64,000 bases of DNA from a virus. Position numbers and translations under genes: made by a program. Where the stretch lies: IMG/VR virus record IMGVR_UViG_3300029214_000148; one strand, 5' to 3'. The notes beneath the pieces are model-generated. The model was given only the letters and a program-made list of their open reading frames with translations. It was not told the origin of the DNA and did not search any database. This document shows, piece by piece, positions 21,262 through 38,335 of this stretch (position 1 is the first letter of the stretch; each line of letters opens with the position of its first letter).

Positions 21262-21420
21262 TATTGTAAAGGTCATAAACCGGGCTGCCAGGGTTACCGG
21301 CTGGCAGAAATCCTTTCGAAAATGTTTACGCTTCCGGGAAAACCCGGAAAGGAGCAGGAGGACAGCAGCACATGCTGCTTCCGGGTGCGATTCCCGGATG
21401 CTTCTTTTACAAGACCGCAC
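21262..21420 (+). ncRNA. conserved structured leader RNA, copy A
   Basis: About 160 nt shared with copies at 33.1 and 38.2 kb. Nested hairpins GCTGCCAG/CTGGCAGC, CCGGGAAAACCCGG, GCAGCACATGCTGC, and a T-arm-like CCGGGTGCGATTCCCGG followed by a U-rich tract. Confidence 0.45.
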
Positions 21421-21471
21421 GAAGCGGCGCAAAAACCACATAAACATGACAAAATACAGGGAGATTAAAAA

Positions 21472-23772
21472 ATGAATCAGAATAAGAAGATAGCAGAGAA
21501 AAAATCAAGACCATACCAGCAGGAATGCATTGATAAGGTAGACAGCTTAAAAGAAGGAAGATTCCTGATTGCTCTTGCAACAGGGCTTGGGAAGACATGG
21601 ATCTTCTCCCATTTTAAGAGATACGGAAGAGTGCTTATTCTTTCACACAGGGATGAACTGGTCAACCAGCCGAGACGGTATTTCGACTGTAGTTTTGGCG
21701 TAGAAAAGGCAGAAAACCATTCCAATGGGGAAGAGGTAGTATCTGCGAGTGTTCAGACACTCAGCCATGACTCCCGTCTTAAGCAGTATAAGCCGGACGA
21801 TTTCCACACGATCATCATTGATGAGGCGCACCACGCTGCCGCGCCATCCTATAAGAAGATCTTAAATTACTTTTCCGGCGCTAAGCGTGTGATCGGTGTC
21901 ACGGCAACTCCGAAGCGTAGCGACAACGTCCGGTTAGATGACGTTTTTAACGAGATTATTTATGCAAAGGACCTTCGTTGGGGGATTAAAAATAAATATT
22001 TAAGTCCGGTGCACTGCCGGGAGGTCCGTGCAAAATATTCCCTGAAAGGCGTAAAAAAATCTATGGGGGATTTTAATGTATCCGATTTGGACGGTTGTAT
22101 TACGGAAGAAGCTGTAATAAGTGTTGCAAAAGTTCTTACAGACTGTCTTCAGGAGAATCGGCATATTCTTATTTATTGTACTACTGTCAGAACCTGTAAT
22201 TTCCTGAAGGCAGTAGTTGACAAACTGCTCCCGGAAAAAGAACGTGGCAGTGTTGCTGTTTTATCAGGGAAAACGCAGGAAGAAGATAGAAAAAATATGC
22301 TTGATGGTTTTATGAACGGGAGTGTCCGCGCCATTATTAACTGCATGGTTTTAACAGAAGGTACAGATCTTCCTATTACGGATACCATTATCAACTTCCG
22401 GCCGACGTGCAACGCGTCTTTGTATCAGCAGATCATCGGAAGAGGAACCCGGCTCTATGAAGGTAAGGAAAACTGTTTATGCATTGATATTCTTCCAGAT
22501 GATGGCAGCGGAACAAATCTGTGTACAGCTCTTACTCTTTTTGGTATAGATGCAAAACTTCTTGGAAAGAAACAGTCTCGAATGCTTGAAGGTGAGACTG
22601 ATCCGCTTGAGATTAGCGATGAAATTGCAGGACGATTTGCAGAACTTACAAAGGCATATGAATATCGGTTGGAGCAGGTTAATCGCTTTGTGCAGGAGCA
22701 GGAAGAAATTATATCTTCTGCGCGGAAGAAACCACATGCAGATTTAAACGACCTTGCGCATGCAGTAGATAAATATAATTCAAAGAAAATGGATGAATTC
22801 CAAAATGATTATGATTTCCTTGGAATGGATTACTCACTTATGCCGGATACGGAACATCGTTATTGTATCAAACCTACATGGAATGACCATATTTACCTTG
22901 CTGATCCAGATGTTATGGGAAATACAACAGTTACGTTTGATCTTACTGCTAGTGTCGGGAAATATTATATCGGTGAAATGAAAATGCAGGATGCAATTTC
23001 ATTTGTTCATGATTTTTGTATGATATCTCCAGATTATATGAAATATTCCTGGAACGTGGCATTACAGGATGAATGGGGGAAAATAAAAGCAACTGAAAAT
23101 CAAATTGGACGTCTTATGAATGAGTATGACGGGTTTCACAAAGGAAATATTAACAAACTTCAAGCATCCAGACTGATTGATCTTGCCTCTCGTATTTCGA
23201 AGATGAAGGCAGAGGGGAAAATGATGCTTATTACACCAAGAATGCAGGAAAAAACAATTGATAAAAAAAAGAAAATGTTTAAGGAAATACTCGAAAAGGA
23301 ACTGAGGGCAAAAGAGCAGGGGCGTAGTGAGTTTGGAGAATTCCAGTCGAAAATCTTTGCTTTGGCAGAAAAAAAGAAAAAAGACGAAGAGAAATTAAAG
23401 AACCAAAAGCCTTTGGAAGAAGAAATGCTCGAAAATGGGGCGATTACAGTTAATATTGCTGTTTTTAGTTCAAAAAAAACAGCAAGCGATGCGCAGATAA
23501 AATTTCTTGGTAATTTAAAAGATAAATTAAAAAACAGAGGAGTGGCTGTCGATAAAAAAATTCCTTATATAGGAATGGGAGCAGAAGAGGCAAGTGTATA
23601 TATTACTATATTAAAAACGCTTGTAGATCGTAACGTAGACCTTATAAAATATGGTAAAAAAATTTATTTTAATCCAAATACAATCATGAGTGTTGTATTA
23701 AAACTAAAGGACACTTCATCCAGAGAAATTAAATGTTGTATCCCGTTCGAAAAAATAGAAGAATTGAGATAA
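21472..23772 (+). CDS. SF2 (DEAH, ResIII-like) helicase with long C-terminal extension
   Basis: 766 aa; motif I ALATGLGKT; motif II IIIDEAHHAA; VTATPKR; no HD domain. Confidence 0.7.
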   Translation: MNQNKKIAEKKSRPYQQECIDKVDSLKEGRFLIALATGLGKTWIFSHFKRYGRVLILSHRDELVNQPRRYFDCSFGVEKAENHSNGEEVVSASVQTLSHDSRLKQYKPDDFHTIIIDEAHHAAAPSYKKILNYFSGAKRVIGVTATPKRSDNVRLDDVFNEIIYAKDLRWGIKNKYLSPVHCREVRAKYSLKGVKKSMGDFNVSDLDGCITEEAVISVAKVLTDCLQENRHILIYCTTVRTCNFLKAVVDKLLPEKERGSVAVLSGKTQEEDRKNMLDGFMNGSVRAIINCMVLTEGTDLPITDTIINFRPTCNASLYQQIIGRGTRLYEGKENCLCIDILPDDGSGTNLCTALTLFGIDAKLLGKKQSRMLEGETDPLEISDEIAGRFAELTKAYEYRLEQVNRFVQEQEEIISSARKKPHADLNDLAHAVDKYNSKKMDEFQNDYDFLGMDYSLMPDTEHRYCIKPTWNDHIYLADPDVMGNTTVTFDLTASVGKYYIGEMKMQDAISFVHDFCMISPDYMKYSWNVALQDEWGKIKATENQIGRLMNEYDGFHKGNINKLQASRLIDLASRISKMKAEGKMMLITPRMQEKTIDKKKKMFKEILEKELRAKEQGRSEFGEFQSKIFALAEKKKKDEEKLKNQKPLEEEMLENGAITVNIAVFSSKKTASDAQIKFLGNLKDKLKNRGVAVDKKIPYIGMGAEEASVYITILKTLVDRNVDLIKYGKKIYFNPNTIMSVVLKLKDTSSREIKCCIPFEKIEELR

Positions 23773-23841
23773 TAATATTATATTAAAATAAAAGTTTGTT
23801 ACTATGTATAAAAATAAATACAATATTCTTTTAAAATTTTT

Positions 23842-23868
23842 TTGACGTTTGTTTAAATGGCGCAATAT
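23842..23868 (+). promoter_or_regulatory. family-1 conserved promoter reading into a small CRISPR array
   Basis: TTGACGTTTGTTTAAATGGCGCAATAT about 75 nt upstream of the first repeat. Confidence 0.5.
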
Positions 23869-23945
23869 TCATAACGAAGGAAGTAAACAGTTAAAAATAA
23901 TCCCACGGGGATAGAGGTTAGTGAATAGCTTTAAGCCACTGTTAT

Positions 23946-24180
23946 AGTTGCACCACGCAAGGGTGCAGGGGTGAAATATTATACTGAATCGTCGCTGCCT
24001 GCATAGATATAGTTGCATCCCTTATGGGATGTATGGGTTGAAATTCAATAGAAACAGATGCATTCGGAGGTGTTACAAGTTGCACCCCCGCAAGGGGTGC
24101 ATGGGTTGAAAATAAGAAATGGTAGGAAGGAATTCAGATATGAACATTAGTTGCATCCCGCAAGGGGTGCAGGGTTGAAA
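23946..24180 (+). CRISPR. degenerate small array, 4 repeats (GTTGCACCCCGCAAGGGGTGCATGGGTTGAAAT-like), 3 spacers
   Basis: repeats at 23946, 24011, 24078, 24149 with spacers of 34-37 nt; spacer 2 near-identical to spacer 2 of the array at 41014. Confidence 0.7.
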
Positions 24181-24343
24181 TAAAAGGATGTTGCCATATA
24201 TGTCAACCGAACTCGGCTATTGAATAACCGAGCATGAGGAAGCGGTTCTTCGGAACCGATGAATCATCCAGTATGACTGGTGAAGCGATGGTATACATAT
24301 TTGAACAAATCAAACAAAAATACAGAATCAGAGGAGAAATAAC

Positions 24344-24982
24344 ATGTCAAAAACAAAAGGACTATCAAAGAAGAAAAAATTACTAAAAACGCTCATGGAT
24401 GAATACCTACCATTTATTACGGTACTACTTATTGTCTTTTTGTATGCAGTAATTGCATTTATTAACATTCCAATTAATAAATGGCTTAGTTTCAACTGTC
24501 CACAATGGTCAGATGGGGAATATCATTTTTGCGATGCATTTTTTGTTCTTCCCTTATTTGAACTGATTATTTGTTTCATTGTGTTTGCTGTTTGTTATTT
24601 TGCCAGCAAGATAACAGCATACAGGAATTATTGTTGCATCCCCCTTACAGAAAATGAAATCAGGAAAAAAGGATTCAGAAACGCAGATGAGTATTTTACC
24701 TACGTGTGCGACATGTGTTCTTATGGTTTTAAAAATAATAAGGGCTACATTCTTGTTGGTGATGAAGACCTCAAAAAAATGTTAACTACTTGTCTGCAGG
24801 TATTTCCTGATAATGGGACAATTTTTTTAATAAACCGCCATATGGTACGAAATATCATATGGGATCCTGATTTTCTTTCCGCGCTTGCACTAGCCAGTGA
24901 CCAAAGGGCGGAAATCATCAATGGACGTGTTGTATTGTCTGGCACCACAAAAGATGGTGACAGAAAAGAATATAAGATATAA
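24344..24982 (+). CDS. two-helix membrane protein, paralog family A
   Basis: 212 aa; N-terminus MSKTKGLSKKKK..FINIPINKWLSF; paralog of 46140..46787; sits immediately downstream of a CRISPR array. Confidence 0.55.
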   Translation: MSKTKGLSKKKKLLKTLMDEYLPFITVLLIVFLYAVIAFINIPINKWLSFNCPQWSDGEYHFCDAFFVLPLFELIICFIVFAVCYFASKITAYRNYCCIPLTENEIRKKGFRNADEYFTYVCDMCSYGFKNNKGYILVGDEDLKKMLTTCLQVFPDNGTIFLINRHMVRNIIWDPDFLSALALASDQRAEIINGRVVLSGTTKDGDRKEYKI

Positions 24983-24998
24983 AGCAAGGAGATATAAT

Positions 24999-25217
24999 AT
25001 GTCAAAGAAAGCATCAGAAACACCGGAGGTGCCATCATATATCCCTCCGGCAAGTGAAAAGGAAAAGATTATAGAAAAGATCCGAAAAAAAGGAATTGAA
25101 TGCAAACCGGATGGTACCGGGATTCCAATATTCTACACAAATGACCCGAAAGTAATGGATATGATCCGAAAAGAGATCAATGAACGATTTTCGTTCGGGT
25201 TTCATATTCGTCCATAG
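24999..25217 (+). CDS. small hypothetical protein
   Basis: 72 aa; ATG after AAGGAGAT. Confidence 0.4.
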   Translation: MSKKASETPEVPSYIPPASEKEKIIEKIRKKGIECKPDGTGIPIFYTNDPKVMDMIRKEINERFSFGFHIRP

Positions 25218-25256
25218 GGAAAATAATAGAAAATAAGATTATAGGAGAAATAGTAC

Positions 25257-25546
25257 ATGTCAAAGAAAAAAATATCAAAAAAGAAAATGTATTAAAGGTG
25301 TTATGGAATGAGTGTATAACATTCAAGGTGTTAATTTTTATCATAGCATATGTAGTGCTTGCGTTTATTAATATGCCATTTGAAAAATGGCTCTCGCTTT
25401 ATTTCGAATGGGAAAAATTAAAGGATTATCAAGAAGTATTCATGGAGGAGATAACATTATTAGTAATTCTCCCTCTCATGGAGATAGCTGCTGTTGCATT
25501 AATTTGTTTTATTATCTATGAGTTTTTTGCTCTGTCAGTAAGATGA
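25257..25546 (+). pseudogene. frameshifted truncated paralog of family A membrane protein
   Basis: MSKKKISKKK...stop; one frame over continues VLKVLWNECITFKV...FINMPFEKWL, matching 46140; shift lies in an A-run. Confidence 0.4.
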
Positions 25547-25655
25547 TTGCATCTGATGAAGTAATTTCGATTGAAAAGGAAGAATGATACGAAAAGAACA
25601 CCGCTATTAGGTCAGAAATAAATAGCAGAGGTTTGCAGATATAAGGAGGATCGGA

Positions 25656-25877
25656 ATGTGTACTTTAAAGGATAAGTTAGTGGAATGTGGAGCATGTGTA
25701 GCAGCTGTAATTCTTGTGTTGGCAGTTTGTTATGGACTAAGTTGGATTGTAACATGTGGAGTTATTAAGCTGATTACGATGTGTTTTGGATTAACATTTA
25801 AGTGGTCCATTGCAACCGGTATTTGGTTAATAATTTGTATTTTGAAAAGTATTTTTAATGTAACTGTTAAGAAATAA
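25656..25877 (+). CDS. small membrane protein
   Basis: 73 aa hydrophobic. Confidence 0.35.
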   Translation: MCTLKDKLVECGACVAAVILVLAVCYGLSWIVTCGVIKLITMCFGLTFKWSIATGIWLIICILKSIFNVTVKK

Positions 25878-26146
25878 ATAGGAGAAATGAGCTATGACAA
25901 TATTAAATTTTATCATTGAGTGTTGGAAGAATTCTTGCGACGAAAAAATCAAAAGGAATTATGTTGAATCCCTTGCTAAAGTGGCGGTTTCAGTGGCCAT
26001 CATTATTATATCTGTTTTATTATATTTGCACATATGAAATGTATAACGGAAATGTATATTTTGGGGGAGGAGGGGTAAGTACAAACATAATTTTTAAAAA
26101 AGTAGCGCAAAGAAAGAATTCACTAATGCAGAAGGAGCGTAACAAT

Positions 26147-27970
26147 ATGATCAACGGAGAATTAGTTGTAGATAATTTTGCGGGCGGAGGAGGAGCTTCC
26201 ACAGGAATTGAACTTGCTACCGGATACAGCGTAGACATAGCTATTAACCATGATCCGGAGGCCATTAAGATGCATAAAGTAAATCATCCCAATACAAAAC
26301 ACTATTGTGAAAACGTATGGGAGGTTGATCCAGTAAAAGCCTGCAAGGGGCACCCTGTCGGTCTTGCATGGTTTTCTCCGGACTGTAAGCATTTTTCCAA
26401 GGCCAAGGGGGGAAAACCGGTAGAAAAGAATATTCGCGGTCTTGCGTGGGTTGTGCTTAAATGGGCGGCACTTGTCAGACCAAGAGTTATCATGCTTGAA
26501 AATGTGGAAGAATTTCAGACATGGGGACCATGTATTCCTATCAGGGATAAAGATACAGGACGCGTTATTGTCAGCATGGTAGGAAGGCATGACAGAGAGA
26601 AGAACGAGCCGCGTACGAGGGTTGCAGATCCAGGAGAAGTTGTTCCTGTAGATCGCCAGATATTCCAACCAGATCCTAAAAGGAGCGGCCAGACATACAA
26701 AAAATGGAGAAAGCAGCTAGAAGCACTTGGATATGAGATAGATACAAAGGAACTTGTAGCAGCTGATTATGGCGCACCTACTATGAGAAAGAGATTCTTT
26801 ATGATTGCACGGTGTGATGGCAAGCCGATTGTCTGGCCGGAACCAACACATGGACCGGCAGACAGTGAAGCGGTTAAAGCAGGTCTTGCCAAACCTTATG
26901 TAGGAGCGTACACGCAATTGGATTTTTCCATGCCGTGTCCGAGTATATTCGATACATCTAAGGAAATCAAAGAGAAGTATGGAATACGCGCTGTACGTCC
27001 ATTGGCGCAGAAAACAATGGATCGAATCGCAAGAGGATTAAAAAAGTTCGTATTAGACAATCCGGAGCCGTTTATTATCCAATGCAATCATGGTGGAGAG
27101 CGTAGACAAAACGACATCAAAGAGCCTTTACCTACTATTACTGGAAAACACGGATATGGAATTGTGGAACCTAAGATTGTTCCATATATGGGAACCAATA
27201 CAACAAATCATCCAGGTGGAAATTGTAAAAATCCTATACATACAATTACAACAGGAAATCAACAGTGCCTTATCAGCCCAACGCTGATTCAGTATTATTC
27301 CGAAACATCGAAGGATGAAGTCAGAAGCCAATCGATTGAAGATCCGATAATGACCGTGGATGGTTCGAACCGATACGGATTGGTCACGTCGTTTCTACAT
27401 AAATATTATGACGGAGGATACACTGGAGCTGGTGATACTGTCGAAAATCCGTTACCGACAGTAACATCCTGGGATCATAACAGTCTGTGTGCAGTTAATC
27501 TGATCCAAATGAATAATCATTGCGATGGAAGGGACGTGAAGGAGCCAATTCCAACAATCACAGCAGGCGATGGTCATTTCGGAGAGGTTAGAGCATTTCT
27601 GATCAAGTATTATGGTCAGGGAACTGGACAGGATGTTAAGGAACCTTTGGATACGGTTACATCAAGAGATCGATTTGGTTTAGTTACAATTAATGGTACC
27701 GACTATAAGATCGTGGATATCGGATTGAGGATGCTTGAACCGAAAGAACTGTATGGATGCCAGGGATTTCCAGATGATTACATCATAGACCGCGATTACA
27801 CAGGGAAAAAATACCCACGGAGTGAGCAGGTACGCAGGTGTGGAAATGCTGTATGTCCTCCGATTCCGGCTGCTCTTGTAAAAGCAAATCTTCCGGAATT
27901 ATGTGTGGCGAAGCGTACCGGCAATATGAAAATCCGGGAGGAACAGACCGGACAGCTTGGATTTGCATAA
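26147..27970 (+). CDS. DNA (cytosine-5)-methyltransferase with five repeated target-recognition modules
   Basis: Motif I FAGGGG; motif IV FSPDCKHFSKAKGG; motif VI ENVEEF; motif X GNAVCPP. Five repeats of (E/N)P(L/I)PT(I/V)T...G. Internal ATG after GAAGGAG. Confidence 0.7.
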   Translation: MINGELVVDNFAGGGGASTGIELATGYSVDIAINHDPEAIKMHKVNHPNTKHYCENVWEVDPVKACKGHPVGLAWFSPDCKHFSKAKGGKPVEKNIRGLAWVVLKWAALVRPRVIMLENVEEFQTWGPCIPIRDKDTGRVIVSMVGRHDREKNEPRTRVADPGEVVPVDRQIFQPDPKRSGQTYKKWRKQLEALGYEIDTKELVAADYGAPTMRKRFFMIARCDGKPIVWPEPTHGPADSEAVKAGLAKPYVGAYTQLDFSMPCPSIFDTSKEIKEKYGIRAVRPLAQKTMDRIARGLKKFVLDNPEPFIIQCNHGGERRQNDIKEPLPTITGKHGYGIVEPKIVPYMGTNTTNHPGGNCKNPIHTITTGNQQCLISPTLIQYYSETSKDEVRSQSIEDPIMTVDGSNRYGLVTSFLHKYYDGGYTGAGDTVENPLPTVTSWDHNSLCAVNLIQMNNHCDGRDVKEPIPTITAGDGHFGEVRAFLIKYYGQGTGQDVKEPLDTVTSRDRFGLVTINGTDYKIVDIGLRMLEPKELYGCQGFPDDYIIDRDYTGKKYPRSEQVRRCGNAVCPPIPAALVKANLPELCVAKRTGNMKIREEQTGQLGFA

Positions 27971-28110
27971 ATTGCATAAATTGCTATACTGTAAAAAGAA
28001 AATGTAAATATTGCTATCATTTGTATTTTTATAGACGTTCATATGCGCAATACATAATTCTTTTTGAAAAAGTAATGAGATGGTAACAAAGAAAAAAGGA
28101 GAGTGAAAGA

Positions 28111-29002: not shown

Positions 29003-29015
29003 AGGTGGTGATATA

Positions 29016-30721: not shown

Positions 30722-31115
30722 GAAAGAAAGGGAAAAATCATGGACAAAAGTGGAGTAATTAACGGATAGACTTACGAGGAAACAAACCAGACTGCGAAAA
30801 CTGCATGATTGTGGGAAAAAATATGTACAGATAGGATGTCCTACGACAGCTTATGGGATTTGTGTAGGCATACAAAAAGGAAATTGATGAATACTATGCG
30901 GTCGGAGTCCCAGAAGAGCGCCTGGAAAATGCAGAAAAGCAGAGAAAGGAAGAAAAACTTGAGCAAGAATCTAATTTGCATATGAGGGTATAGCAGATTC
31001 AAGATCGGTTGTATGTATTATTTTTGAAAGGGGTGATGCCTATTGAGAGTTAATTTTAAAGAGAGTACATAAATAGCAGTTTAAAAAATCATAAAGAATG
31101 TGAGGGAAAAAATAT

Positions 31116-32900
31116 ATGAGTGGTTTACCATTTGATCCTATTATTATTGCGGTTGTCGCGGTCGTTGTGATCCTTATCGGCATACTTGCCAGCGGGTATG
31201 TCAAAGCGCCGGCAGACAAGGCATACATCATTTCCGGACTTAAGAAAGTTCCGAAGGTGTTAATTGGCCGGGCAGGAATTAAGATTCCTTTTCTGGAAAG
31301 AAAAGACGAACTTCTGTTAAAGCAGATCGGTATTGATATTAAAACCGGAGGCTATGTTCCAACGAAAGATTTCATCGGTGTTGATATTGATGCGATTGCA
31401 AAAATCCGTCTGATTTCCATGCAGGATGTAGGCAAAGAGAAAACCTATACCAGAACAATCGTTGATGAGATTGTTGACGGCAGCAATACAAAAGATGGAG
31501 ATAAAGAATATTCAACTCATACAGAAACTGTTACAATCAAGATTACAGAAGATATGGCGCGTGCGGCAATGCGGAATTTCCTTAATATGAAAGAATCCAA
31601 CATTGTTGAAGCTTTACAGGATTCTTTACAGGGAAATATGAGAGAAATCGTTGGTACGCAGACATTGCGTGCTTTGTGCCAGGATCGTAAATCTTTTGGT
31701 GATGAGGTTCAGAGCAAAGCGCAGCCGGATATGAATGCCCTCGGTGTATGGATCGAGTCCTGCAATATTCAGCGTATTGAGGACGAACAGGATCTGATCA
31801 ATGCTCTTGGTATGGATAACATGGCTGCTATCCAGAAGAGTGCAAGCATTGCAAAGGCAGAGGCTGACAAAGACGTTGCGATTGCACAGGCGAAGGCAGC
31901 AAGAGAAGCAAATGATGCAAAAGTCGCCGCTGATACGGAAATTGCTGAGAAGCAGAACGAGCTTGCAATCAAAAAGGCAGAATTACAGCAGCTCTCTGAC
32001 ACAAAGAAGGCGATTGCGGATGCTGCTTATAAGATTCAGGAACAGGAACAGCGTAAAGCGATTGAGACAGCAAAAGTTAATGCAGATATTGCAGAGCAGG
32101 AAAGAACTGTTGAACTTCGCGAGAAGGAAGCACAGGTTGCAGAACAGACACTTAATGCGACGGTAAAGAAGCAGGCGGATGCAGATAAGTACAGCAGACA
32201 GCAGGCTGCAGAAGCAAATCTGATTGAAAAATCCCGTCAGGCTGATGCAGAAAAATATCAGCAGGAGAAGGAAGCAGAAATCCAAAAGATTAAGGCAGAG
32301 GCCGATAAGGAAGCGAAGAAAAAAGAAGCAGAAGGTATTCTTGCAATCAAGAGATCAGAAGCAGAAGGTATCGCCGCTGTAGGTAAAGCAGAAGCTCAGG
32401 CAATCGAAGCAAAAGGTATTGCAGAAGCTCAAGCAATGGAGAAAAAAGCAGAAGCTTATTCAAAGTATAACAAGGCTGCTGTTGCAGAAATGACGATCAA
32501 AATGCTTCCAGAGCTTGCAGCCAAAGTTGCTGAGCCGCTTGGACAGATTGACAAAATCACAATCATCGGAGGCGGCGATGGCAGCAATGGTATCGAACAG
32601 GTTGCCGGGAATGTTCCTGTTGTTATGGCGAAGGTCTTTGAGAGTGTCAAAGAAGCTACAGGGATAGATCTGACAAGTATTGTTAATGCTGAGTCTTACG
32701 ATGCGAAGGTTAACCGCAATGTTAATTTAACCGGTATCAAAGATACGGTGGCAATTTCCGGCGGATCAAAGAGTGATACTGACGCAGATAAAACCGAGAA
32801 TTCCGGCATCGATTCTGATTTATCAGGAGAAAATGCAGAGGTCATCCGTTCTTTGGCAGAAAATGCTAATCAGGAATCAGCTGACAGTAATCTGGACTAA
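31116..32900 (+). CDS. SPFH/band-7 flotillin-like protein (YqiK/FloA-like)
   Basis: 594 aa; N-terminal membrane hairpin; SPFH core; long Ala/Glu/Lys coiled coil (AEAEK repeats). Confidence 0.7.
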   Translation: MSGLPFDPIIIAVVAVVVILIGILASGYVKAPADKAYIISGLKKVPKVLIGRAGIKIPFLERKDELLLKQIGIDIKTGGYVPTKDFIGVDIDAIAKIRLISMQDVGKEKTYTRTIVDEIVDGSNTKDGDKEYSTHTETVTIKITEDMARAAMRNFLNMKESNIVEALQDSLQGNMREIVGTQTLRALCQDRKSFGDEVQSKAQPDMNALGVWIESCNIQRIEDEQDLINALGMDNMAAIQKSASIAKAEADKDVAIAQAKAAREANDAKVAADTEIAEKQNELAIKKAELQQLSDTKKAIADAAYKIQEQEQRKAIETAKVNADIAEQERTVELREKEAQVAEQTLNATVKKQADADKYSRQQAAEANLIEKSRQADAEKYQQEKEAEIQKIKAEADKEAKKKEAEGILAIKRSEAEGIAAVGKAEAQAIEAKGIAEAQAMEKKAEAYSKYNKAAVAEMTIKMLPELAAKVAEPLGQIDKITIIGGGDGSNGIEQVAGNVPVVMAKVFESVKEATGIDLTSIVNAESYDAKVNRNVNLTGIKDTVAISGGSKSDTDADKTENSGIDSDLSGENAEVIRSLAENANQESADSNLD

Positions 32901-32917
32901 CAGAATATGTAATTTAA

Positions 32918-32962
32918 GACATATACCGGGGTACTTGCGTATTCTGGTATATGTCTTTTTAT
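32918..32962 (+). terminator. rho-independent terminator
   Basis: AGACATATACC...GGTATATGTCT + T5. Confidence 0.55.
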
Positions 32963-33109
32963 GCTTTTATGGTGAGAGTTTTATTTTTGATCATGGCGAA
33001 ACGATACCAAAGAAAGTCCGGTTTGCAGTGTACGAAAAATGCAACCACCGGTGCAGTTTTTACTTCGAAAAGATCGGACTGGATATGGCGTAAGTTTTTC
33101 AAAAAATCT

Positions 33110-33136
33110 TTGACGATTTTTCAAAAGGCGCAATAT
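33110..33136 (+). promoter_or_regulatory. family-1 conserved promoter
   Basis: TTGACGATTTTTCAAAAGGCGCAATAT. Confidence 0.55.
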
Positions 33137-33139
33137 GTA

Positions 33140-33290
33140 TAGTGTAAAGGTCATAAACCGAGCTGCCAGGGTTACCGGCTGGCAGAAAATCCTTTCGAAA
33201 AATGTTTACGTTCCGGGAAATCCCCGGAAAGGATAGTGGGTACGCAGCGCAAGTTATTCCGGGTTCGACTCCCGGATATCCTTTTTCAAA
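33140..33290 (+). ncRNA. conserved structured leader RNA, copy B
   Basis: same architecture as 21262..21420; T-arm-like CCGGGTTCGACTCCCGG. Confidence 0.45.
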
Positions 33291-33319
33291 ATTGCAGGAA
33301 AAATGTGGAGGAAAAGAGA

Positions 33320-33625
33320 ATGGATGAACTGATCAAGAAACTTCGGATGTATGCAGACACATACAAAAAAGAACCAGCCGGACGGGAAGTTGAAGGTACC
33401 GTGGAATTGCTCGAAAATTCTGCAGATGCTTTGCAGGAAGCAGGGGAGGCTGTTCAAAAATTAAAGCAGAGATTTGTGGATGGAATAGATGTCCATTACC
33501 AGGGACATGATGCCGACGATTACATTGAGTGTCCTTTCTGCGGATACGAGGTTGCAGCGATCGACGATTACTGTGAGCTGCGCCCAAATCATTGTCCGAA
33601 ATGTGGAACAAAGCTGATATACTAG
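33320..33625 (+). CDS. zinc-ribbon protein
   Basis: 101 aa; CPFCG...CPKCG; RBS GGAGGAAAAGAGA. Confidence 0.5.
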   Translation: MDELIKKLRMYADTYKKEPAGREVEGTVELLENSADALQEAGEAVQKLKQRFVDGIDVHYQGHDADDYIECPFCGYEVAAIDDYCELRPNHCPKCGTKLIY

Positions 33626-33640
33626 ATATAGGAGGCTGGC

Positions 33641-33868
33641 ATGAAAGAATTGAGGAAGTTGTGCATGCACCCATTGTGCGATGCAGAGCCAAAAATGCAT
33701 ACGATTTACGAATATATCGGAAAAGCCGGGACGAAAGGTACGACAGTTTTGTGGTTCCTTGAGATCCCCAAAAAGGAGCCAAAGTGTATGGGATCAGTGA
33801 GGAAGACCATGTTTCTCCATATATGGAAGGCATGGCATTCCGGTATGCAGAATTCAAACCATACATGA
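33641..33868 (+). CDS. small hypothetical protein
   Basis: 75 aa; GGAGG RBS. Confidence 0.35.
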   Translation: MKELRKLCMHPLCDAEPKMHTIYEYIGKAGTKGTTVLWFLEIPKKEPKCMGSVRKTMFLHIWKAWHSGMQNSNHT

Positions 33869-33977
33869 TTGATGAGATTTACAGCAATGGATTCGTTGTC
33901 TGCCACGAGTGTTAGGATGAGACAAAAATGCGTGTCCAATTAACAAGAAGGAATATGCGGTAAGTAATGGAGATATT

Positions 33978-34457
33978 GTGGATATAAATGCAGAATACCA
34001 CAAAAGGGCATCAAATCTTGGCATGGAGAAGCAGAGGACTTACCTTCAGTATGAGATCTCCAAGCCAGATGTCATCAGAAAAGATCTTGAGACCGCAAAA
34101 AAGAGGCTGGAAAATGCAAAAGAAAGAAATTTTAAAACGTTGGATGAGTGGGAAGAAAAAATTGAAGCTTATACGAAAGTGTTGGAAGACAGCAAAGTAT
34201 CTTCCTTGTTTTACAATGATATTTCTAACGCCATTTCGGACGGAACAGCACAGTGCCGTATCTGTACCTTCGTTTGGCGGGGTAAATGGAAATATACGGA
34301 AAATATTTCCCTTGGAGTGTGCGTCGTGATCAAGCACATGGGGTACACCTACATTTTTGGCACAAGTCCAGACAGCCAGTATTCTCCATGTTTTGCAGTA
34401 TGGGAAAGCGAAGGAGAACCAGAGCTGGAAGAAGAAAACTACCTTATAGTCAAGTAA
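33978..34457 (+). CDS. hypothetical protein
   Basis: 159 aa; GTG start after GGAG. Confidence 0.4.
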   Translation: MDINAEYHKRASNLGMEKQRTYLQYEISKPDVIRKDLETAKKRLENAKERNFKTLDEWEEKIEAYTKVLEDSKVSSLFYNDISNAISDGTAQCRICTFVWRGKWKYTENISLGVCVVIKHMGYTYIFGTSPDSQYSPCFAVWESEGEPELEEENYLIVK

Positions 34458-34509
34458 GAAAGAAGCCGGGGAATCCCGACTTTTCTGCTGCATTGTGTGT
34501 ATATTTTAA

Positions 34510-34582
34510 CGCCGCCTGCGGGATTCGAACCCGCGGATAAAGAGTTCAAAGCTCCCTGCGTTAACCTTTTCGCCAAGGCGGA
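34510..34582 (-). tRNA. tRNA-Gln (anticodon TTG)
   Basis: Manual fold. T-arm GCGGG-TTCGAAT-CCCGC; anticodon loop CTTTGAA; D-arm GCGA/ACGC. Position 1:72 is a U-C mismatch. No encoded CCA. Confidence 0.55.
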
Positions 34583-34583
34583 G

Positions 34584-34651
34584 CACACCCGGAAGGACTC
34601 GAACCCTCGTTACCGGTTTTGGAGACCAGTTTCTGTCCATCAGACAGGTGC
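34584..34651 (-). tRNA. tRNA-Trp-like (anticodon CCA) with truncated D-arm
   Basis: Anticodon stem-loop CTGGT-CTCCAAA-ACCGG and T-arm fold well; only 68 nt; D-arm TCTG-ATGGA-CAGA is abnormally short. Confidence 0.35.
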
Positions 34652-34655
34652 ATAA

Positions 34656-34726
34656 CAGGCGATAATGGAATCGAACCATTGTTTTCTGAGTCAGAATCAG
34701 ATGTCTTACCATTGAACGAATCGCCC
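34656..34726 (-). tRNA. tRNA-Gln (anticodon CTG)
   Basis: Anticodon stem TCTGA/TCAGA perfect; loop TTCTGAC; 4-nt variable loop; acceptor GGGCGAT/ATCGCCT. Confidence 0.55.
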
Positions 34727-34728
34727 AG

Positions 34729-34802
34729 TATCCCCAAAGGGACTCGAACCCTTAACCGACAGATTAGAAATCTGTTGCTCTTTCCAATTGAGCTATGGGG
34801 GT
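34729..34802 (-). tRNA. tRNA-Arg (anticodon TCT)
   Basis: Anticodon stem ACAGA/TCTGT; loop TTTCTAA; D-arm GCTC-AATTGGAAA-GAGC; one acceptor mismatch. Confidence 0.6.
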
Positions 34803-34808
34803 ATATAG

Positions 34809-34898
34809 CGCAGACACCGGGGATCGAACCCGGACAGCGGGTGTGCCGCATGCCACATTAGCAGTGTGGAGGGGTACCATTTACCTTTATATGTCTGC
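34809..34898 (-). tRNA. tRNA-Ser (anticodon GCT), class II
   Basis: Anticodon stem CCACA-CTGCTAA-TGTGG; long variable arm GCGG-CACA-CCGC; acceptor GCAGACA/TGTCTGC. Confidence 0.6.
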
Positions 34899-34903
34899 AT
34901 AAG

Positions 34904-34975
34904 AGGCATCGGAGGGGATCGAACCCTCGCCTTCCGGGTTGCAGCCGGACGCCTTCGCCGTTTGGCTACGATGCC
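34904..34975 (-). tRNA. tRNA-Cys (anticodon GCA)
   Basis: Acceptor GGCATCG/CGATGCC perfect; anticodon stem TCCGG/CCGGA; loop CTGCAAC. Confidence 0.65.
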
Positions 34976-35005
34976 ATATAATTCTTCCCGATAAGAGAAG
35001 ATGAG

Positions 35006-35089
35006 CGCTGTGGCAGGGAGTCGAACCCTGATATCCTTTCGGAATGACGGTTTTCAGGACCGTTGCTTTACCAGTTGAGCCACCACAGC
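35006..35089 (-). tRNA. tRNA-Ser-like (anticodon TGA), class II, with C at position 33
   Basis: Acceptor GCTGTGG/CCACAGC; anticodon stem ACGGT/ACCGT; loop CCTGAAA; variable arm TCC-GAAA-GGA. Confidence 0.5.
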
Positions 35090-35197
35090 AAAAATAAAAG
35101 CATACACCTCTCAATCGAAAGATGTATGCTTTGTAATTCCAGGTATTTCCAATATTCTCCCGGAAATTTTCCTACAATGACCACATTTCTTTCAATT

Positions 35198-35278
35198 TGA
35201 GACAATATTTATTTGCACGACAACTACGCCAGATACATGACTGCGACTGACTCATACTTGCCTGTGAATATTGTCTCA
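35198..35278. repeat. 12-bp inverted repeat pair (TGAGACAATATT ... AATATTGTCTCA) separated by 57 bp, inside the tRNA cluster gap
   Basis: read directly; lies between the two tRNA sub-clusters. Confidence 0.5.
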
Positions 35279-35334
35279 TTACTGCTGTAATCATTGATTT
35301 TCCCTTCCTTTCCTTGGTTTTCTTGAATATTTAG

Positions 35335-35408
35335 TGTGTCTGGTGGGACTTGAACCCGACGACCCCACGATTAAAAGTCGCGTGCTCTGCCAACTGAGCT
35401 ACAGACAC
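35335..35408 (-). tRNA. tRNA-Lys (anticodon TTT)
   Basis: Acceptor GTGTCTG/CAGACAC perfect; D-arm GCTC-AGTTGGCA-GAGC; anticodon loop CTTTTAA; weak T-stem. Confidence 0.6.
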
Positions 35409-35413
35409 ATAAG

Positions 35414-35485
35414 CGGATCAGGAGGGAATCGAACCCTCATCTTCCGGTAGACAGCCGGATGTACTAGCCGCTATACTACAGATCC
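35414..35485 (-). tRNA. tRNA-Asp (anticodon GTC) with U at position 37
   Basis: Anticodon stem TCCGG/CCGGA; loop CTGTCTA; D-arm GTAT-AGCGGCTA-GTAC. Confidence 0.55.
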
Positions 35486-35489
35486 ATAA

Positions 35490-35562
35490 AGCTCCCGTCC
35501 GGCTTCGAACCGGAAACCTTCTGATTACAAGTCAGATGCACTACCAGTTGTGCTACAGGAGC
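35490..35562 (-). tRNA. tRNA-Thr (anticodon TGT)
   Basis: Acceptor GCTCCTG/CGGGAGC; D-arm GCAC-AACTGGTA-GTGC; anticodon stem TCTGA/TCAGA. Confidence 0.65.
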
Positions 35563-35646
35563 AGGAACACTTCCGACGGGTGCTGCCCCGCTATCTCCGC
35601 CGTGACAGGGCGGTGACTCTGTTGTTTGTCCTCGGAAGTAAATAAG

Positions 35647-35728
35647 TGCGCCGGGGAGGACTCGAACCTCCGGTGTTTCTTTGTGGCTGATTTACAGTCA
35701 GCTGCTGTCGCCTCTGAGCCACCGACGC
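35647..35728 (-). tRNA. tRNA-Tyr (anticodon GTA), class II
   Basis: Acceptor GCGTCGG/CCGGCGC; anticodon stem GCTGA-CTGTAAA-TCAGC; long variable arm. Confidence 0.6.
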
Positions 35729-35733
35729 ATAAG

Positions 35734-35806
35734 CTGGTCCGGAGGGTCTCGAACCCTCAACGCCCCGGTTAACAGCCGGGTGCTCTACCATTGAGCTACG
35801 GATCAG
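35734..35806 (-). tRNA. tRNA-Asn (anticodon GTT)
   Basis: Anticodon stem CCCGG/CCGGG; loop CTGTTAA; D-arm GCTC-AATGGTA-GAGC. Confidence 0.6.
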
Positions 35807-35878
35807 AGCATGTGACGGGTCTCGAACCCGCCCGTCCTGCTTGGAAGGCAGGTGTGCCGCCAACAACACTTCACATGC
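35807..35878 (-). tRNA. tRNA-Gly (anticodon TCC)
   Basis: Acceptor GCATGTG/CACATGC perfect; anticodon stem CCTGC/GCAGG; loop CTTCCAA; A at position 8. Confidence 0.6.
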
Positions 35879-36431
35879 ATGCGGATAAAAGAAGTGCCTG
35901 TTTTCTCTTATCCATTCAGTTTTTTACCGCATCGCTGCGGAGTGGACAGGAGTGGTAACGATCCACCCTGTAAGGATTTTCAGTCCTTCGCTAATCCATC
36001 TCAGCTACCTGTCCATGGCTTTTTCTGCAATAAAAAAGCCGCATCAAGAAATTTCCTCTTCTCTCTGCGGTCATCTGCGTTTTGCAATATTTCGGTTTTA
36101 AGTGCCTGGTTTAAAATCGAAATCGACCGCGGGAAGGTGTATCATAATAGTTCTGTCCCCATGTTTTCCCGGATTTTGAGCATGAGAAACTAAACATATT
36201 GCTGAAATCGCCGTATGTTCTACAATCATTATTAAAATTTTTACTACTCATCATCTTTAACATGGTTTTCTTTTCCTTTCATTTTAATTAATGCTGGATA
36301 AACAAAAAGCCCGTCACTTAACTCAAAGCTACACATCCAAATAGCTCTGAGTTAAAAGACAGGCACTTCTTTTATCTCATGCACCTATCATATCATACTG
36401 ATCGTGAAGTGTCAACAGGAAATTTAAAAAA

Positions 36432-36500
36432 GGTTATTTTTGGTTATTTTGGTTATTTTTCAAAATAAAACAAAATAAAACAAAATAAAACAAATAAAAA
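36432..36500. repeat. tandem repeats GGTTATTTT x3 and CAAAATAAAA x4
   Basis: read directly, in the 3-prime flank of the minus-strand gene. Confidence 0.6.
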
Positions 36501-36526
36501 TCTCCGCCAAAATAGACGGAGATTTG
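36501..36526 (-). terminator. terminator for the minus-strand gene
   Basis: TCTCCGCCAAAATAGACGGAGA hairpin followed on the minus strand by a T-rich run. Confidence 0.55.
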
Positions 36527-36530
36527 AAAA

Positions 36531-37151
36531 TTAACAGGTTAATTCGTAGTCGTACAGATCGAGCGGCGTTTTGTTTCCGCTGGACCACTCAAACTCTTCG
36601 TTGTCCCAAATGCTGCGGGCGTTGTTCAGATTGATCTCATCCGCCAGTACCTTTTCTTCGATATTAATGAACCGTTCCAAAGATTCTTTGAAGCGGTTGA
36701 TGACTTCCTCGGGATTCTTTGAATGCCAGCTGTATTCGTCGAAAAACCTTCCACTGGCGGTAATTGTTAATTCCTCGCCGTTATCCGACAATCCAGATAA
36801 TTCAAGTGTAACCATTCCCTCGGAAATATCGCTATAATATTCGCCTGGTTTGTTGGTATCGTTGATTTTGTTCCCTAGTTCTTCCGCTTTTTCCATCATG
36901 CCCCAAATTTCCCCTGGAAGCGTAAGGTAGTCTTCTGGATAGTGTTCCACGGTTGGGTTGATTTCCTCTTGCAGGAGATCTTCAACAAAATTGTCTCCTT
37001 TAAAAATAGCAAAAGAGTCGACACCTCTTGCGGAAACCTCAACTTTCCCGCATTTGCATGGGAATATTTTAAAAAGTCTTCTATCTCGAGTGTCATAAGC
37101 TACTGAAAAAATGCCGCATTCTTTGCATTTAAAATTTCTTTGTGTTTTCAT
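36531..37151 (-). CDS. hypothetical protein with N-terminal zinc ribbon
   Basis: 206 aa from internal Met (MKTQRNFKCKECG...CKCGKV) preceded by GGGAGAAAAATC; family-2 promoter upstream on the minus strand. Confidence 0.5.
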   Translation of the reverse strand: MKTQRNFKCKECGIFSVAYDTRDRRLFKIFPCKCGKVEVSARGVDSFAIFKGDNFVEDLLQEEINPTVEHYPEDYLTLPGEIWGMMEKAEELGNKINDTNKPGEYYSDISEGMVTLELSGLSDNGEELTITASGRFFDEYSWHSKNPEEVINRFKESLERFINIEEKVLADEINLNNARSIWDNEEFEWSSGNKTPLDLYDYELTC

Positions 37152-37159
37152 GATTTTTC

Positions 37160-37215
37160 TCCCTTCATCAATGGTTTTATTTACACTTTTAATATGAAAT
37201 ATTAAAAATATTTCA
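37160..37215 (-). promoter_or_regulatory. family-2 promoter/leader on minus strand
   Basis: TTTCATATTAAAAGTGTAAATAAAACC ... GAAGGGAG. Confidence 0.4.
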
Positions 37216-37234
37216 AAAAATTTCCCGGAAATTT

Positions 37235-37261
37235 TTGACGAAATTTCAAAAGGCGCAATAT
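37235..37261 (+). promoter_or_regulatory. family-1 conserved promoter, divergent from the minus-strand family-2 promoter
   Basis: TTGACGAAATTTCAAAAGGCGCAATAT. Confidence 0.5.
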
Positions 37262-37289
37262 ATGTAATGAAAGGAGGAGGAAATACAAA

Positions 37290-37622
37290 TTGGAATGTTT
37301 GACATGCAAGAAACACTGGTCGCAGGGAGGCCGCTATTCAGAGAACGTGAGAAACTGCCTGCATTATGAGGAAGAACCAAGAGGAAAAATGGTCCGCACA
37401 GAACTGTCTTTTCGTATGGATGCAGAGGCGGAAACTCCGGTGGTCAGATTTGGAGAGAAAATACTGGTTTCCGATGGTTCAAAAGCGGTCGAGATGACTG
37501 TGGTCAAGATCAACTGGGTTAATCTTCGGGATATGCTCTGCAATGTATCCGCGGATTATCATGAGAATGAGATGCCGCGATTTGAGAAAGAAAAGAAGTT
37601 CAAAGCATTACATGGAAAATAG
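37290..37622 (+). CDS. hypothetical protein
   Basis: 110 aa; TTG start after AGGAGGAGG; its stop abuts a small CRISPR array. Confidence 0.4.
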   Translation: MECLTCKKHWSQGGRYSENVRNCLHYEEEPRGKMVRTELSFRMDAEAETPVVRFGEKILVSDGSKAVEMTVVKINWVNLRDMLCNVSADYHENEMPRFEKEKKFKALHGK

Positions 37623-37728
37623 TTGCATTCCAGTGGAATGCATGGGGTGAAAGAAATAGGCAAATCGCATGACAATTTCTGAAATTAAATTGTTGCGCTC
37701 CCGTGGAGGGGGGCGTATGGATTGAAAT
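37622..37728 (+). CRISPR. small array, 2 degenerate repeats + 1 spacer, in the 3-prime UTR
   Basis: GTTGCATTCCAGTGGAATGCATGGGGTGAAAG / 38-nt spacer / GTTGCGCTCCCGTGGAGGGGGGCGTATGGATTGAAAT. Confidence 0.55.
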
Positions 37729-37875
37729 GTGGAATCCTGTGATTGGCACATACTTGGGTGTAGTGCAGAAAAAGTGACTCATTACAGATCACTTTCGATG
37801 AAAATTTGCTTTGCGATTTTTCCGATCACCCAATTTGGAATGTCGCTGCGGCATCCAGAATGGATTTCTCCGTTT

Positions 37876-38058
37876 TCAACAAAAAAAGAATGCGGATTCT
37901 TCCGTTTTCATGCGGTCTAAAGCTTGCGCAGAAAAATATAAGGAATGGTGGAAGTCGCATCTTTGTGCCTCCTCATATGTATGGACTTCCTCTATTTTCC
38001 CATCGATCAGGCTGACACAGCCGGACCAGAACTCTTTTCCTTCGAATATTGCTGCCAT
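37876..38058 (-). CDS. small hypothetical protein
   Basis: 60 aa; GAAAGGAGCAAAAC-ATG with a family-2 promoter on the minus strand. Confidence 0.4.
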   Translation of the reverse strand: MAAIFEGKEFWSGCVSLIDGKIEEVHTYEEAQRCDFHHSLYFSAQALDRMKTEESAFFFC

Positions 38059-38135
38059 GTTTTGCTCCTTTCAAAATACTTTCGTTTACACTTTCAATAT
38101 GAAATGAAAATATTTCAAAACATTTCCAAAAACTT

Positions 38136-38162
38136 TTGACGATTTTTTAAATGGCGCAATAT
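38136..38162 (+). promoter_or_regulatory. family-1 conserved promoter
   Basis: TTGACGATTTTTTAAATGGCGCAATAT. Confidence 0.55.
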
Positions 38163-38335
38163 GTATCATGTAAAGGTCATAAACCGAGCTGCCAGGGTTA
38201 TCGGCTGGCAGAAATCTTTTCGATATTTGTTTACACTCCGGGGAAACCCGGAAGGGGTAGTGAGGACGCAGCGTGTGCTGTTTCCGGGTTCGATTCCCGG
38301 GTATCCCTTTTGACTGCCACATACGGTCTTCTCAA
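38163..38335 (+). ncRNA. conserved structured leader RNA, copy C
   Basis: same core as copies A and B; T-arm-like CCGGGTTCGATTCCCGGG; followed by about 250 nt of extra leader before the gene. Confidence 0.45.

Follow-up and report, generated by a model that had tools for sequence, protein, structure and literature searches.

We identified three copies of a structured leader RNA in a 64,000-nucleotide stretch of DNA listed as a virus in IMG/VR (record IMGVR_UViG_3300029214_000148), the whole of which we refer to as the window. The copies lie on the + strand and precede three unrelated genes, which encode a superfamily 2 (SF2) helicase, a zinc-ribbon protein and a protein resembling nucleoside hydrolases. 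An earlier model-generated reading of the same letters (the original prediction) had described these copies and genes and given each copy a length of about 160 nt. Reading and aligning the three regions bears out the copies as located and refines their length to ~145 nt each. Sequence comparison indicates that the leader represents a real, conserved and previously undescribed structured RNA family, which most likely controls expression of the adjoining gene.

Copy 1 (21264-21408, +) precedes the SF2 helicase gene (21472-23772, +, 766 aa), which encodes DEAD, ResIII and Helicase_C domains. Copy 2 (33142-33286, +) precedes a gene for a 101-aa zinc-ribbon protein (33320-33625, +) that lies 34 nt past the U-run of the leader. 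Copy 3 (38168-38311, +) lies upstream of an IU-nucleoside-hydrolase-like gene (38587-39315, +, 242 aa; PF01156, E 8.5e-6, below the Pfam cut-off). A partial fourth copy, diverged and comprising the 3' half only, is located just upstream of this third gene (38469-38557, +). The tRNA-like module that forms the 3' part of the leader ends 67 nt before the start codon in copy 1, 34 nt before it in copy 2 and 30 nt before it in the half copy, and full copy 3 lies 275 nt from its gene. The three leader-headed units are short (0.3-2.5 kb).

A promoter-like motif that we call family 1 (TTGACRATTTTN6GGCGCAATATG) has nine matches in a pattern search of the window, all on the + strand, against 0.00 expected (8853, 21232, 23842, 30322, 33110, 37235, 38136, 41337 and 41599). 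Its form, a TTGAC-N16-GGCGCAATATG region, is unusual, highly conserved and confined to one strand. The placement of each leader directly after such a promoter holds: all three copies start 7 nt past their motifs, at 21232-21259 (TTGACAATTTTCCAGATGGCGCAATATG), 33110-33137 and 38136-38163 (all +). Three of the nine promoters thus carry a leader, three lead straight into genes and three lead into CRISPR-related transcripts. Terminators of the preceding genes are found at 20509, ~21100-21130 (a terminator-like hairpin) and 32916, with no other family-1 promoter between them and the leader copies. Expression of all three downstream genes therefore relies on the family-1 promoter, and their transcription has to pass through the leader. 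This promoter is probably read by a sigma factor of the element itself. The window encodes a sigma-70-family protein with regions 2 and 4 (5121-5849, +), which together with the nine motifs possibly constitutes a private sigma/promoter system.

The three window copies are 83-84% identical in pairwise comparison. The conserved block begins ~60 nt 5' of the promoter-like motif and ends, in every copy, at a run of 4-5 T, beyond which the copies are no longer alike. A 17-mer at the 5' end of the leader (GTAAAGGTCATAAACCG) occurs three times in the window against 0.08 expected, and the string of the T-arm described below occurs five times against 0.00 expected. A covariance model (R1) built from ten distinct leader copies finds exactly three full copies in the window, scoring 181.3 bits (copy 1), 170.3 bits (copy 2) and 159 bits (copy 3). 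The half copy is recovered by nhmmer (E 7e-5) and by cmsearch (34.9 bits, E 2e-7, match span ~38451-38562). No further leader copy is present in the 10 kb upstream of the window. The ATG of the promoter motif opens reading frames into the leader, but single-base indels among the copies shift the frame and break every one of them; the leader is thus non-coding, and we rejected a leader peptide. We also rejected a conserved antisense promoter within the leader, which is seen in copy 1 only.

Read 5' to 3' in copy 2 coordinates, the leader consists of a single-stranded start (GUAAAGGUCAUAAAC), a hairpin H1 (33163-33185), a CCUUU box that we call U1 (AAAUCCUUUCGA, 33187-33198), the sequence GUUUAC, a second hairpin H2 (33211-33229) and a three-way junction (33229-33283). 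H1 has a 7-bp stem and a GGUUAYCGG loop and is invariant except for G.U changes. H2 has the form UCCGGG-loop-CCCGGA, in which the loop is variable. The junction is made up of an acceptor-like 5' strand (X, 33229-33235), an 8-nt G-rich linker, a hairpin H3 of 5-6 bp with a tetraloop (33244-33257), UU, a T-arm (33258-33276) and an acceptor-like 3' strand (D1, 33277-33283) that runs directly into UUUU(U) (33282-33286). The corresponding features of copy 1 are H1 at 21285-21307, U1 at 21308-21319, H2 at 21332-21349 and the module at 21350-21405 (acceptor strands 21350-21356 and 21399-21405, H3 21364-21379, T-arm 21380-21398), followed by a U-run at 21405-21408. In copy 3 they are H1 at 38189-38211, U1 at 38212-38223, H2 at 38236-38253 and the module at 38253-38308 (H3 38268-38281, T-arm 38283-38301), with the U-run at 38308-38311 (all +).

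The original prediction had pictured four to five nested hairpins. We find four separate hairpins instead, the last two of which sit inside a covarying closing stem. The T-loop-like hairpin that it had singled out is well founded and belongs to a complete tRNA-like module of acceptor-like stem, short hairpin and T-arm; the U-rich tract is likewise present, as 4-5 U that follow the closing stem. The T-arm reads CCGGG-U[U/G/C]CGA[U/C]U-CCCGG in all full copies and has the 5-bp stem, 7-nt loop, U54-A58 pair and C56 of a tRNA T-arm.

To assess the fold we aligned ten distinct full copies (alignment A6) and then added three half copies (A7). Pairing holds in 94% of the A6 cells and in 100% of those of the closing stem, which spans up to 9 bp. 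Two-sided changes affect four of the seven core pairs of this stem, a figure that rises to six of seven in A7. The T-loop pair 54:58 also swaps from U.A to A.U in two half-copy sequences of A7. None of 500 shuffles reached the observed covariation of A7 on any measure, and the observed value also exceeded all slid controls. Structure is thus conserved when more homologues are aligned. Pair cells hold ~21 G.U against ~1 A.C, which places the fold on the gene-sense strand and hence in RNA. The 3' part of the leader is a well-supported tRNA-like three-way junction.

Two-sided variation is almost confined to the closing stem, so the idea that sequence varies while pairing is kept applies there and not to H1, H2 and the T-stem, predicted helices that are nearly invariant. 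The T-stem is 97% paired and shows a single compensatory change (C-G to A-U in contig L059). The invariance of H1, H2 and the T-stem suggests sequence-specific recognition. Cross-pairing between H2 and the T-stem, whose stems are identical, was considered and rejected as not general, since the half copies have unrelated H2 hairpins. RNAalifold applied to the three window copies only found no two-sided change in any predicted pair and chose another long-range pairing. MAFFT set the zinc-ribbon-type rows one base off near H2 and X, which lowers the H2 and H3 pairing percentages given for A6 and also the alternative-fold energies of these rows.

The tRNA-like module recurs behind three different 5' contexts. 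Besides the full copies, it is seen in the half copy, where a hairpin at 38469-38493 precedes an acceptor-like stem of 8 bp (38496-38503 paired to 38546-38553). Within this stem lie a small hairpin and one that resembles a T-arm (38527-38545, loop ATCGTTT), and a U-run follows (38553-38557; all +). A related module (41474-41551, +) occurs in another leader, the transcript of promoter 41337. There, a long hairpin and the T-arm TCCGG-TTCAACC-CCGGA lie within an 8-bp stem (GGGAATCC/GGATTCCC) that no U-run directly follows. This non-coding transcript of ~230 nt (41365-41590, +) is flanked by two family-1 promoters in tandem, 41337 and 41599. Its predicted folding is strong (z-score -4.98) and includes, in addition to the junction, a GC-rich hairpin and a long one at the 5' end. 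Copy 3 and the half copy are separated by a non-coding spacer (38312-38468, +) that is conserved in the related contig L057 (L057:4256-4413) and partly in L059. The spacer contains several hairpins and is highly conserved in L057, whose proteins are only ~70% identical. Copy 3, spacer and half copy, which together cover ~420 nt ahead of the nucleoside-hydrolase-like gene, may form one large structured RNA.

Only a narrow clade of related elements from metagenomes carries the leader family. Exact and degenerate DNA patterns gave either no match in IMG/VR or chance matches in coding DNA only (L001-L004), and searches there with the helicase and the nucleoside-hydrolase-like protein returned no relatives. 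A gapped pattern yielded four matches in GTDB genomes, all by chance. Leader blastn against PLSDB plasmids and INPHARED phages found nothing related, and 20-kb megablast against phages matched one tRNA and nothing else. A gapped pattern scan of metagenome contigs recovered the same element repeatedly (L010, L015, L026, L028, L034, L035, L046 and L052). The further copies that the original prediction had proposed to look for in related elements were also found. The related 147-kb contig L011 carries leader copies ahead of its helicase and zinc-ribbon orthologues, and contigs with helicase homologues at 73% (L053-L056) and 71% identity (L057-L058) carry the leader before the same genes. In L059 (64% helicase identity), which is a short contig, only the half-copy type was seen, and it lies at the contig end.

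Promoter, leader and gene remain linked in these relatives. Orthologous leaders are 89-93% identical, whereas nucleotide identity in the helicase coding sequence next to them is 72-75%, which indicates that the leader is under stronger constraint than the protein-coding gene. The covariance model detected no leader in L060-L064 (helicase 44-46% identical), in the huge elements L065-L069 (nucleoside-hydrolase-like gene 65-74% identical) or in L072-L074 (zinc-ribbon gene 63-66% identical). Two of these leaderless relatives, L072 and L073, have a plain TTGACA-N17-TATAAT promoter ahead of the zinc-ribbon gene. Contig L053 has two degenerate leader copies (L053:12393-12503 and L053:14591-14748). 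One has only the 5' domain, behind a family-1 promoter, with a differing 3' part; in the other the T-arm has decayed and a family-1 promoter cannot be recognised. These copies suggest that promoter-leader cassettes turn over in the lineage. A group II intron-type reverse transcriptase is inserted elsewhere in the same contig (L053:3154-5034), and in L057 an IS200/IS605 unit of Y1 transposase and TnpB (L057:4905-6938) lies between the copy-3-type leader and the next genes.

The leader had not been recognised as any riboswitch or T-box class, and a search of Rfam agrees: no family matched at its gathering threshold, including T-boxes, riboswitches (yjdF among them) and self-cleaving ribozymes. 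Each leader copy was searched at E <= 10, and even there no T-box or riboswitch, yjdF included, and no YrlA match appeared. Only alignments of 9-19 bits were obtained, mostly over the T-arm region, with Deinococcus Y RNA, tRNA-Sec and mascRNA the best. The Deinococcus Y RNA model (RF01053) aligned over model positions 43-85 only, at 15.5-19 bits against a gathering score of 80; the tRNA-Sec alignment scored 15.5-16.5 bits with most of the model skipped; and mascRNA scored 14.1 bits (E 3.6). ARAGORN found 14 tRNAs in the window, none of them at the leaders, and Rfam tRNA matches were limited to a tRNA array and to position 52779. We thus rejected the leader as a tRNA on two grounds, the silence of the tRNA finders and the lack of a D-stem or anticodon arm. 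We likewise rejected it as a Y RNA: a regular-expression search for the Ro60-binding motif GNCGAAN0-1G (PMC4201824) was negative in all ten distinct copies, Pfam scans of ~60 open reading frames in the 64-kb window revealed no TROVE/rsr gene, and the RF01053 scores are far below gathering. The antiterminator RNA families of the Rfam library that we searched gave no match and share only a promoter-proximal position with the leader.

We consider a promoter-proximal transcription attenuator the best explanation of the leader, tentatively and with a probability of roughly 35%. In the mechanism that we infer, the leader would be transcribed from the element-specific promoter, and formation of the 7-9-bp closing stem would create, with the U-run, a branched intrinsic terminator that releases a short RNA. 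Alternatively, the 5' strand of the stem (GGAAAGGAN) might pair with the upstream CCUUU box, in a zipper-like extension of H2, or a factor bound to the invariant hairpins or the tRNA-like elbow might act on polymerase; in either case transcription would continue into the helicase, zinc-ribbon or nucleoside-hydrolase-like gene.

We rank the attenuator first for several reasons. The conserved block ends at the U-run, right after the covarying GC-rich closing stem, and this stem has the A-tract, stem and U-run style of the element's terminators at 20509 and 32916. The stem/U-run layout recurs in the half copy, 30 nt ahead of the third gene. For the 5' strand of the stem, the competing pairing U1:X is possible in all copies (91.5% of cells paired), and constrained folds place the closing-stem and U1:X states no more than ~4 kcal/mol apart in most copies; larger gaps in zinc-ribbon-type rows are artefacts of the one-base misregister. 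Leader attenuators and cis-acting antitermination RNAs are, moreover, common in Gram-positive conjugative elements (PMC13401043, PMC8191782, PMC11658703). The position of each copy between a conserved promoter and a gene, and the strong constraint on the leader relative to the helicase coding sequence, also support attenuation. A terminator consensus scan lists the three copies and the half copy, using the T-arm hairpin.

Several observations weigh against an attenuator. The closing stem is GC-rich and abuts TTTT(T), as in an intrinsic terminator, but it is not a simple small-loop hairpin: its 'loop' is an unusual ~45-nt junction of two hairpins, and the T-arm hairpin alone sits 5-6 nt from the U-run. 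The U-run itself is short (4-5 U) and partly pairable with AAA of the 5' strand, and neither the half copy of L057 nor module 41474-41551 is directly followed by one. Conservation of the T-loop, with covariation of its 54:58 pair, is also not something that a terminator would require. The U1:X pairing lacks two-sided covariation, as does pairing of the 5' AAAGG with U1 (S1:U1), which is 92% paired with A.C breaks in three sequences. Folded as a single sequence, copy 2 also shows no unusual stability (z = -1.2).

Because of the T-loop, and because the module recurs with different 5' domains, two readings in which the leader mimics tRNA stay in play. Host RNase P and/or RNase Z may cut the base of the module ('tRNA punctuation'), as in the parallels MALAT1/mascRNA and M. 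smegmatis YrlA, which would free a stable small RNA, consisting of the 5' domain and/or ~60 nt of tRNA-like RNA that may carry a CCA tail, and would give the mRNA a new 5' end. The stacking of an acceptor-like stem (7 bp or more) on a T-stem of 5-6 bp, the T-loop UNCGAYU with its covarying 54:58 pair, and the G-rich linker where the GG of a D-loop would sit are all consistent with such cleavage, and a 7-bp acceptor stem was enough in M. smegmatis YrlA (PMC4201824). The module resembles the element's 13 CCA-less tRNA genes in lacking an encoded CCA and having a U-rich trailer, its occurrence behind three different 5' contexts argues for autonomous function, and its weak Rfam likeness is to tRNA-Sec, mascRNA and the tRNA-like part of Deinococcus Y RNA. 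The acceptor/T stack (7-9 bp plus 5-6 bp) is, however, longer and more variable than the ~12 bp of tRNA, and RNase P and RNase Z gauge a constant 12-bp stack, which a closing stem of varying length, extendable by A:U pairs, does not provide. Position 55 of the T-loop can be U, G or C, ARAGORN and the Rfam tRNA model miss a module that has neither D-arm nor anticodon arm, and cleavage would leave the invariance of the 5' domain without a reason; we regard processing as unlikely. Alternatively, a module placed just 5' of the ribosome-binding site may stimulate translation, in the manner of yjdF. The Shine-Dalgarno sequence would then be masked by the CCUUU boxes (U1, or the closing stem's 3' strand) in the unfolded state of the module, or the other way round. 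Structures of tRNA or tRNA-like type 5' of a Shine-Dalgarno sequence raise translation 2-6-fold, and the T-loop arm of yjdF pairs with the ribosome-binding site in the off state (PMC9142559). The distances of 67, 34 and 30 nt to the start codons fit this arrangement, and U1 and the 3' strand of the closing stem are anti-Shine-Dalgarno-like (UCCUUU) and pair with a downstream GGAGG in whole-5'-untranslated-region minimum-free-energy folds of several copies. CU-rich and AG-rich boxes nonetheless pair promiscuously, and the masking shows no covariation. Full copy 3 is 275 nt from its gene, module 41474-41551 has no ribosome-binding site after it, Rfam yjdF is not matched, and the genes served are unrelated and hence give no hint of a ligand, all of which makes translational control a rather poor bet. 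That the junction is a genuine tRNA mimic working as a regulatory or processing device, whether through RNase P/Z, an elbow-binding factor or a sensor of the yjdF kind, is accordingly a possibility that we hold to be unlikely.

Three further readings concern the leader as a whole. A nascent leader that binds polymerase and renders it terminator-resistant, as do cis-acting processive antiterminator RNAs of the put, EAR, conAn2 or canT type, would also be promoter-proximal, orientation-specific, conserved in sequence and pairing, and placed at the head of several transcription units, and sequence-diverse examples are known in Gram-positive conjugative elements (PMC8191782, PMC11658703). We find this improbable: the three units are short, the only obvious terminator-like signal in them is the leader's own U-run, and known elements are single-copy, head very long operons and have no tRNA-like module. 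Pfam scans of ~60 open reading frames in the window also revealed no ConAn1-like partner. Equally improbable are stand-alone small RNA genes, trans-acting or protein-tethering in the manner of Y RNAs, with the downstream genes expressed by leak-through only. Promoter, 145-nt transcript and U-run do form a discrete unit, the 5' AAAGG can pair with the U-run region in Y-RNA-like fashion (5 bp, 100% of cells paired, with no two-sided covariation), and the best sub-threshold Rfam match is the tRNA-like part of Deinococcus Y RNA. The lack of a Ro-binding motif and of TROVE/rsr among the open reading frames scanned speaks against such genes, as do downstream genes that have no promoter of their own and a promoter-leader-gene order that is kept in relatives. 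We consider it highly improbable, finally, that the leader is a DNA-level feature or relic (a tRNA-gene remnant, an integration site, a single-strand origin or a single-stranded DNA promoter of the transferred strand). A sequence like the 3' half of tRNA on a mobile element with a tRNA array could be so explained, and single-strand origins are typically structured, orientation-specific non-coding DNA; but compensatory changes keep the stem strands paired, the G.U and A.C counts place the fold on the RNA strand, and the leader keeps a constant place right behind the promoter and is more conserved than coding DNA.

From its genes, the carrier appears to be a conjugative megaplasmid or related giant mobile element of gut Lachnospiraceae-like Clostridia. 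The window belongs to a mobile element of 137-205 kb, whose genes are nearly all on the + strand. It encodes a VirB4-like conjugation ATPase of the CD1110 family (14303-16705, +), 36-37% identical over 97-99% of its length to Clostridium plasmid proteins, as well as a PcfJ-like protein (57587-59413, +), a bifunctional penicillin-binding protein (999-3686, +), a topoisomerase (6289-8760, +), two DNA methylases, a flotillin and a dUTPase. The VirB4-like, PcfJ-like, penicillin-binding and topoisomerase genes point to a conjugative megaplasmid and not a phage, and no phage structural genes were seen in the window. A look-up of the last open reading frame of the window returned no matches. A related element was binned with an Agathobacter metagenome-assembled genome. 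A 283-aa backbone protein (151-1002) is indexed in 260 blocks of the contig collection, which indicates that the element is common in human gut metagenomes.

We also identified several RNA-related features elsewhere in the window. A HEARO/omega RNA (54526-54790, +; Rfam RF02033, 115.6 bits, full length) is directly followed by an IscB gene (54846-56102, +, 418 aa, RRXRR and HNH domains), and the two form an intact IscB-omega RNA unit. IscB-like genes are also present in relatives L065, L068 and L072. A CRISPR mini-array (23842-24190, +) behind the family-1 promoter at 23842-23869 contains four degenerate type I-C-like repeats of ~33 nt (GTTGCACCCCGCAAGGGGTGCATGGGTTGAAAT) spaced 66-70 nt apart. 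A second CRISPR-related region (41599-45042, +) consists of a family-1 promoter, a solitary CRISPR-repeat-like hairpin (~41679-41707, GTTGTGCCCCTATGGGGTGCATGGGTAAT) and, directly behind it, the type I-C genes cas5d, csd1/cas8c and cas7. No cas3 was seen among the open reading frames scanned, and the solitary hairpin could be a regulatory or processing element of the cas leader. The tRNA array (34509-36014, -) comprises 13 tRNA genes, none with an encoded CCA and most with a U-rich trailer, often UUAU. Between its tRNA-Arg and tRNA-Cys genes lies an extra tRNA-like gene (34803-34902, -) that ARAGORN and Rfam both miss. This gene resembles tRNA-Ser: its acceptor stem and T-arm are good, its anticodon loop carries GCU, its variable arm is long and its D-arm is odd.

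Structured leaders decide when conjugative elements turn on their genes, and the few that have been described (conAn2, canT and the zipper attenuator) contain no tRNA-like module. The leader described here joins an element-specific promoter to a covarying tRNA mimic at no fewer than three transcription units (at least three per element) of a common gut megaplasmid. If the tRNA-like junction is the working part, as terminator, processing site or enhancer, the leader would represent a new design in bacterial cis-regulation and the second natural instance, yjdF being the first, in which an mRNA leader co-opts a tRNA fold. Action of RNase P/Z or an elbow factor would tie three accessory or establishment genes to host tRNA handling, a plasmid form of 'tRNA punctuation', and a sensor would constitute a new tRNA-derived riboswitch-like device of the yjdF kind, with a ligand or protein as its partner. 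Should the leader be only an elaborate terminator, it would be a modest addition to the catalogue of RNA motifs.

Several known systems share parts of this layout. The lambda pR'-6S RNA-tR' unit is a promoter-proximal terminator controlled by Q antitermination. It resembles the leader in its order of promoter, short non-coding transcript, terminator-like stem with U-run, and genes, and in a conserved promoter and initial transcribed region repeated on a mobile element. It differs in that no Q-like protein or qut site was identified here, and structure and conservation in the leader go far beyond the needs of a plain terminator. The cATT zipper attenuator of the pLS20 family (PMC13401043) is likewise a promoter-proximal leader of a Gram-positive conjugative element. 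It shares a central stem-loop (here H2), an upstream segment (here U1) complementary to the 5' strand of a terminator-like stem, a U-run and, potentially, two exclusive folds. In our leader, however, a tRNA-like junction with its T-loop sits on the terminator-like stem, the length is ~145 nt as opposed to 456 nt, copies precede single accessory genes rather than one conjugation operon, the switch has no covariation support, and there is no sequence similarity. The RNAs canT of Tn916 (PMC11658703) and conAn2 of pLS20 (PMC8191782) are also structured, cis-acting, orientation-specific and near promoters of Gram-positive conjugative elements. They are 260-600 nt long, single-copy, ahead of long operons and free of a tRNA-like module, and their function has been shown experimentally, whereas that of the leader is proposed from its sequence.

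Other systems share its fold. The yjdF riboswitch (PMC9142559, RF01764) is a Firmicutes-type 5' leader with a tRNA-like fold and a T-loop near the ribosome-binding site. Our leader has a three-way rather than a four-way junction, no D-arm, a U-run after the module, no Rfam match and unrelated downstream genes. The Y RNAs (D. radiodurans Yrn1 and YrlA; PMC4201824, RF01053) share the G-rich linker, short hairpin, UU and T-arm (CCGGGUUCGAUUCCCGG) and, potentially, the pairing of 5' and 3' ends; unlike them, the leader sits directly before genes and lacks a Ro60 motif and an rsr/TROVE gene in the window. MALAT1/mascRNA also places a tRNA-like cloverleaf remnant within a longer transcript, but it is eukaryotic and at the 3' end of a long non-coding RNA, whereas ours is a bacterial 5' leader for which processing is only a candidate. 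The leader is thus a member of none of these classes: its layout is closest to the leader attenuators of conjugative plasmids and to lambda pR'-6S-tR', and its fold is closest to yjdF, YrlA and mascRNA.

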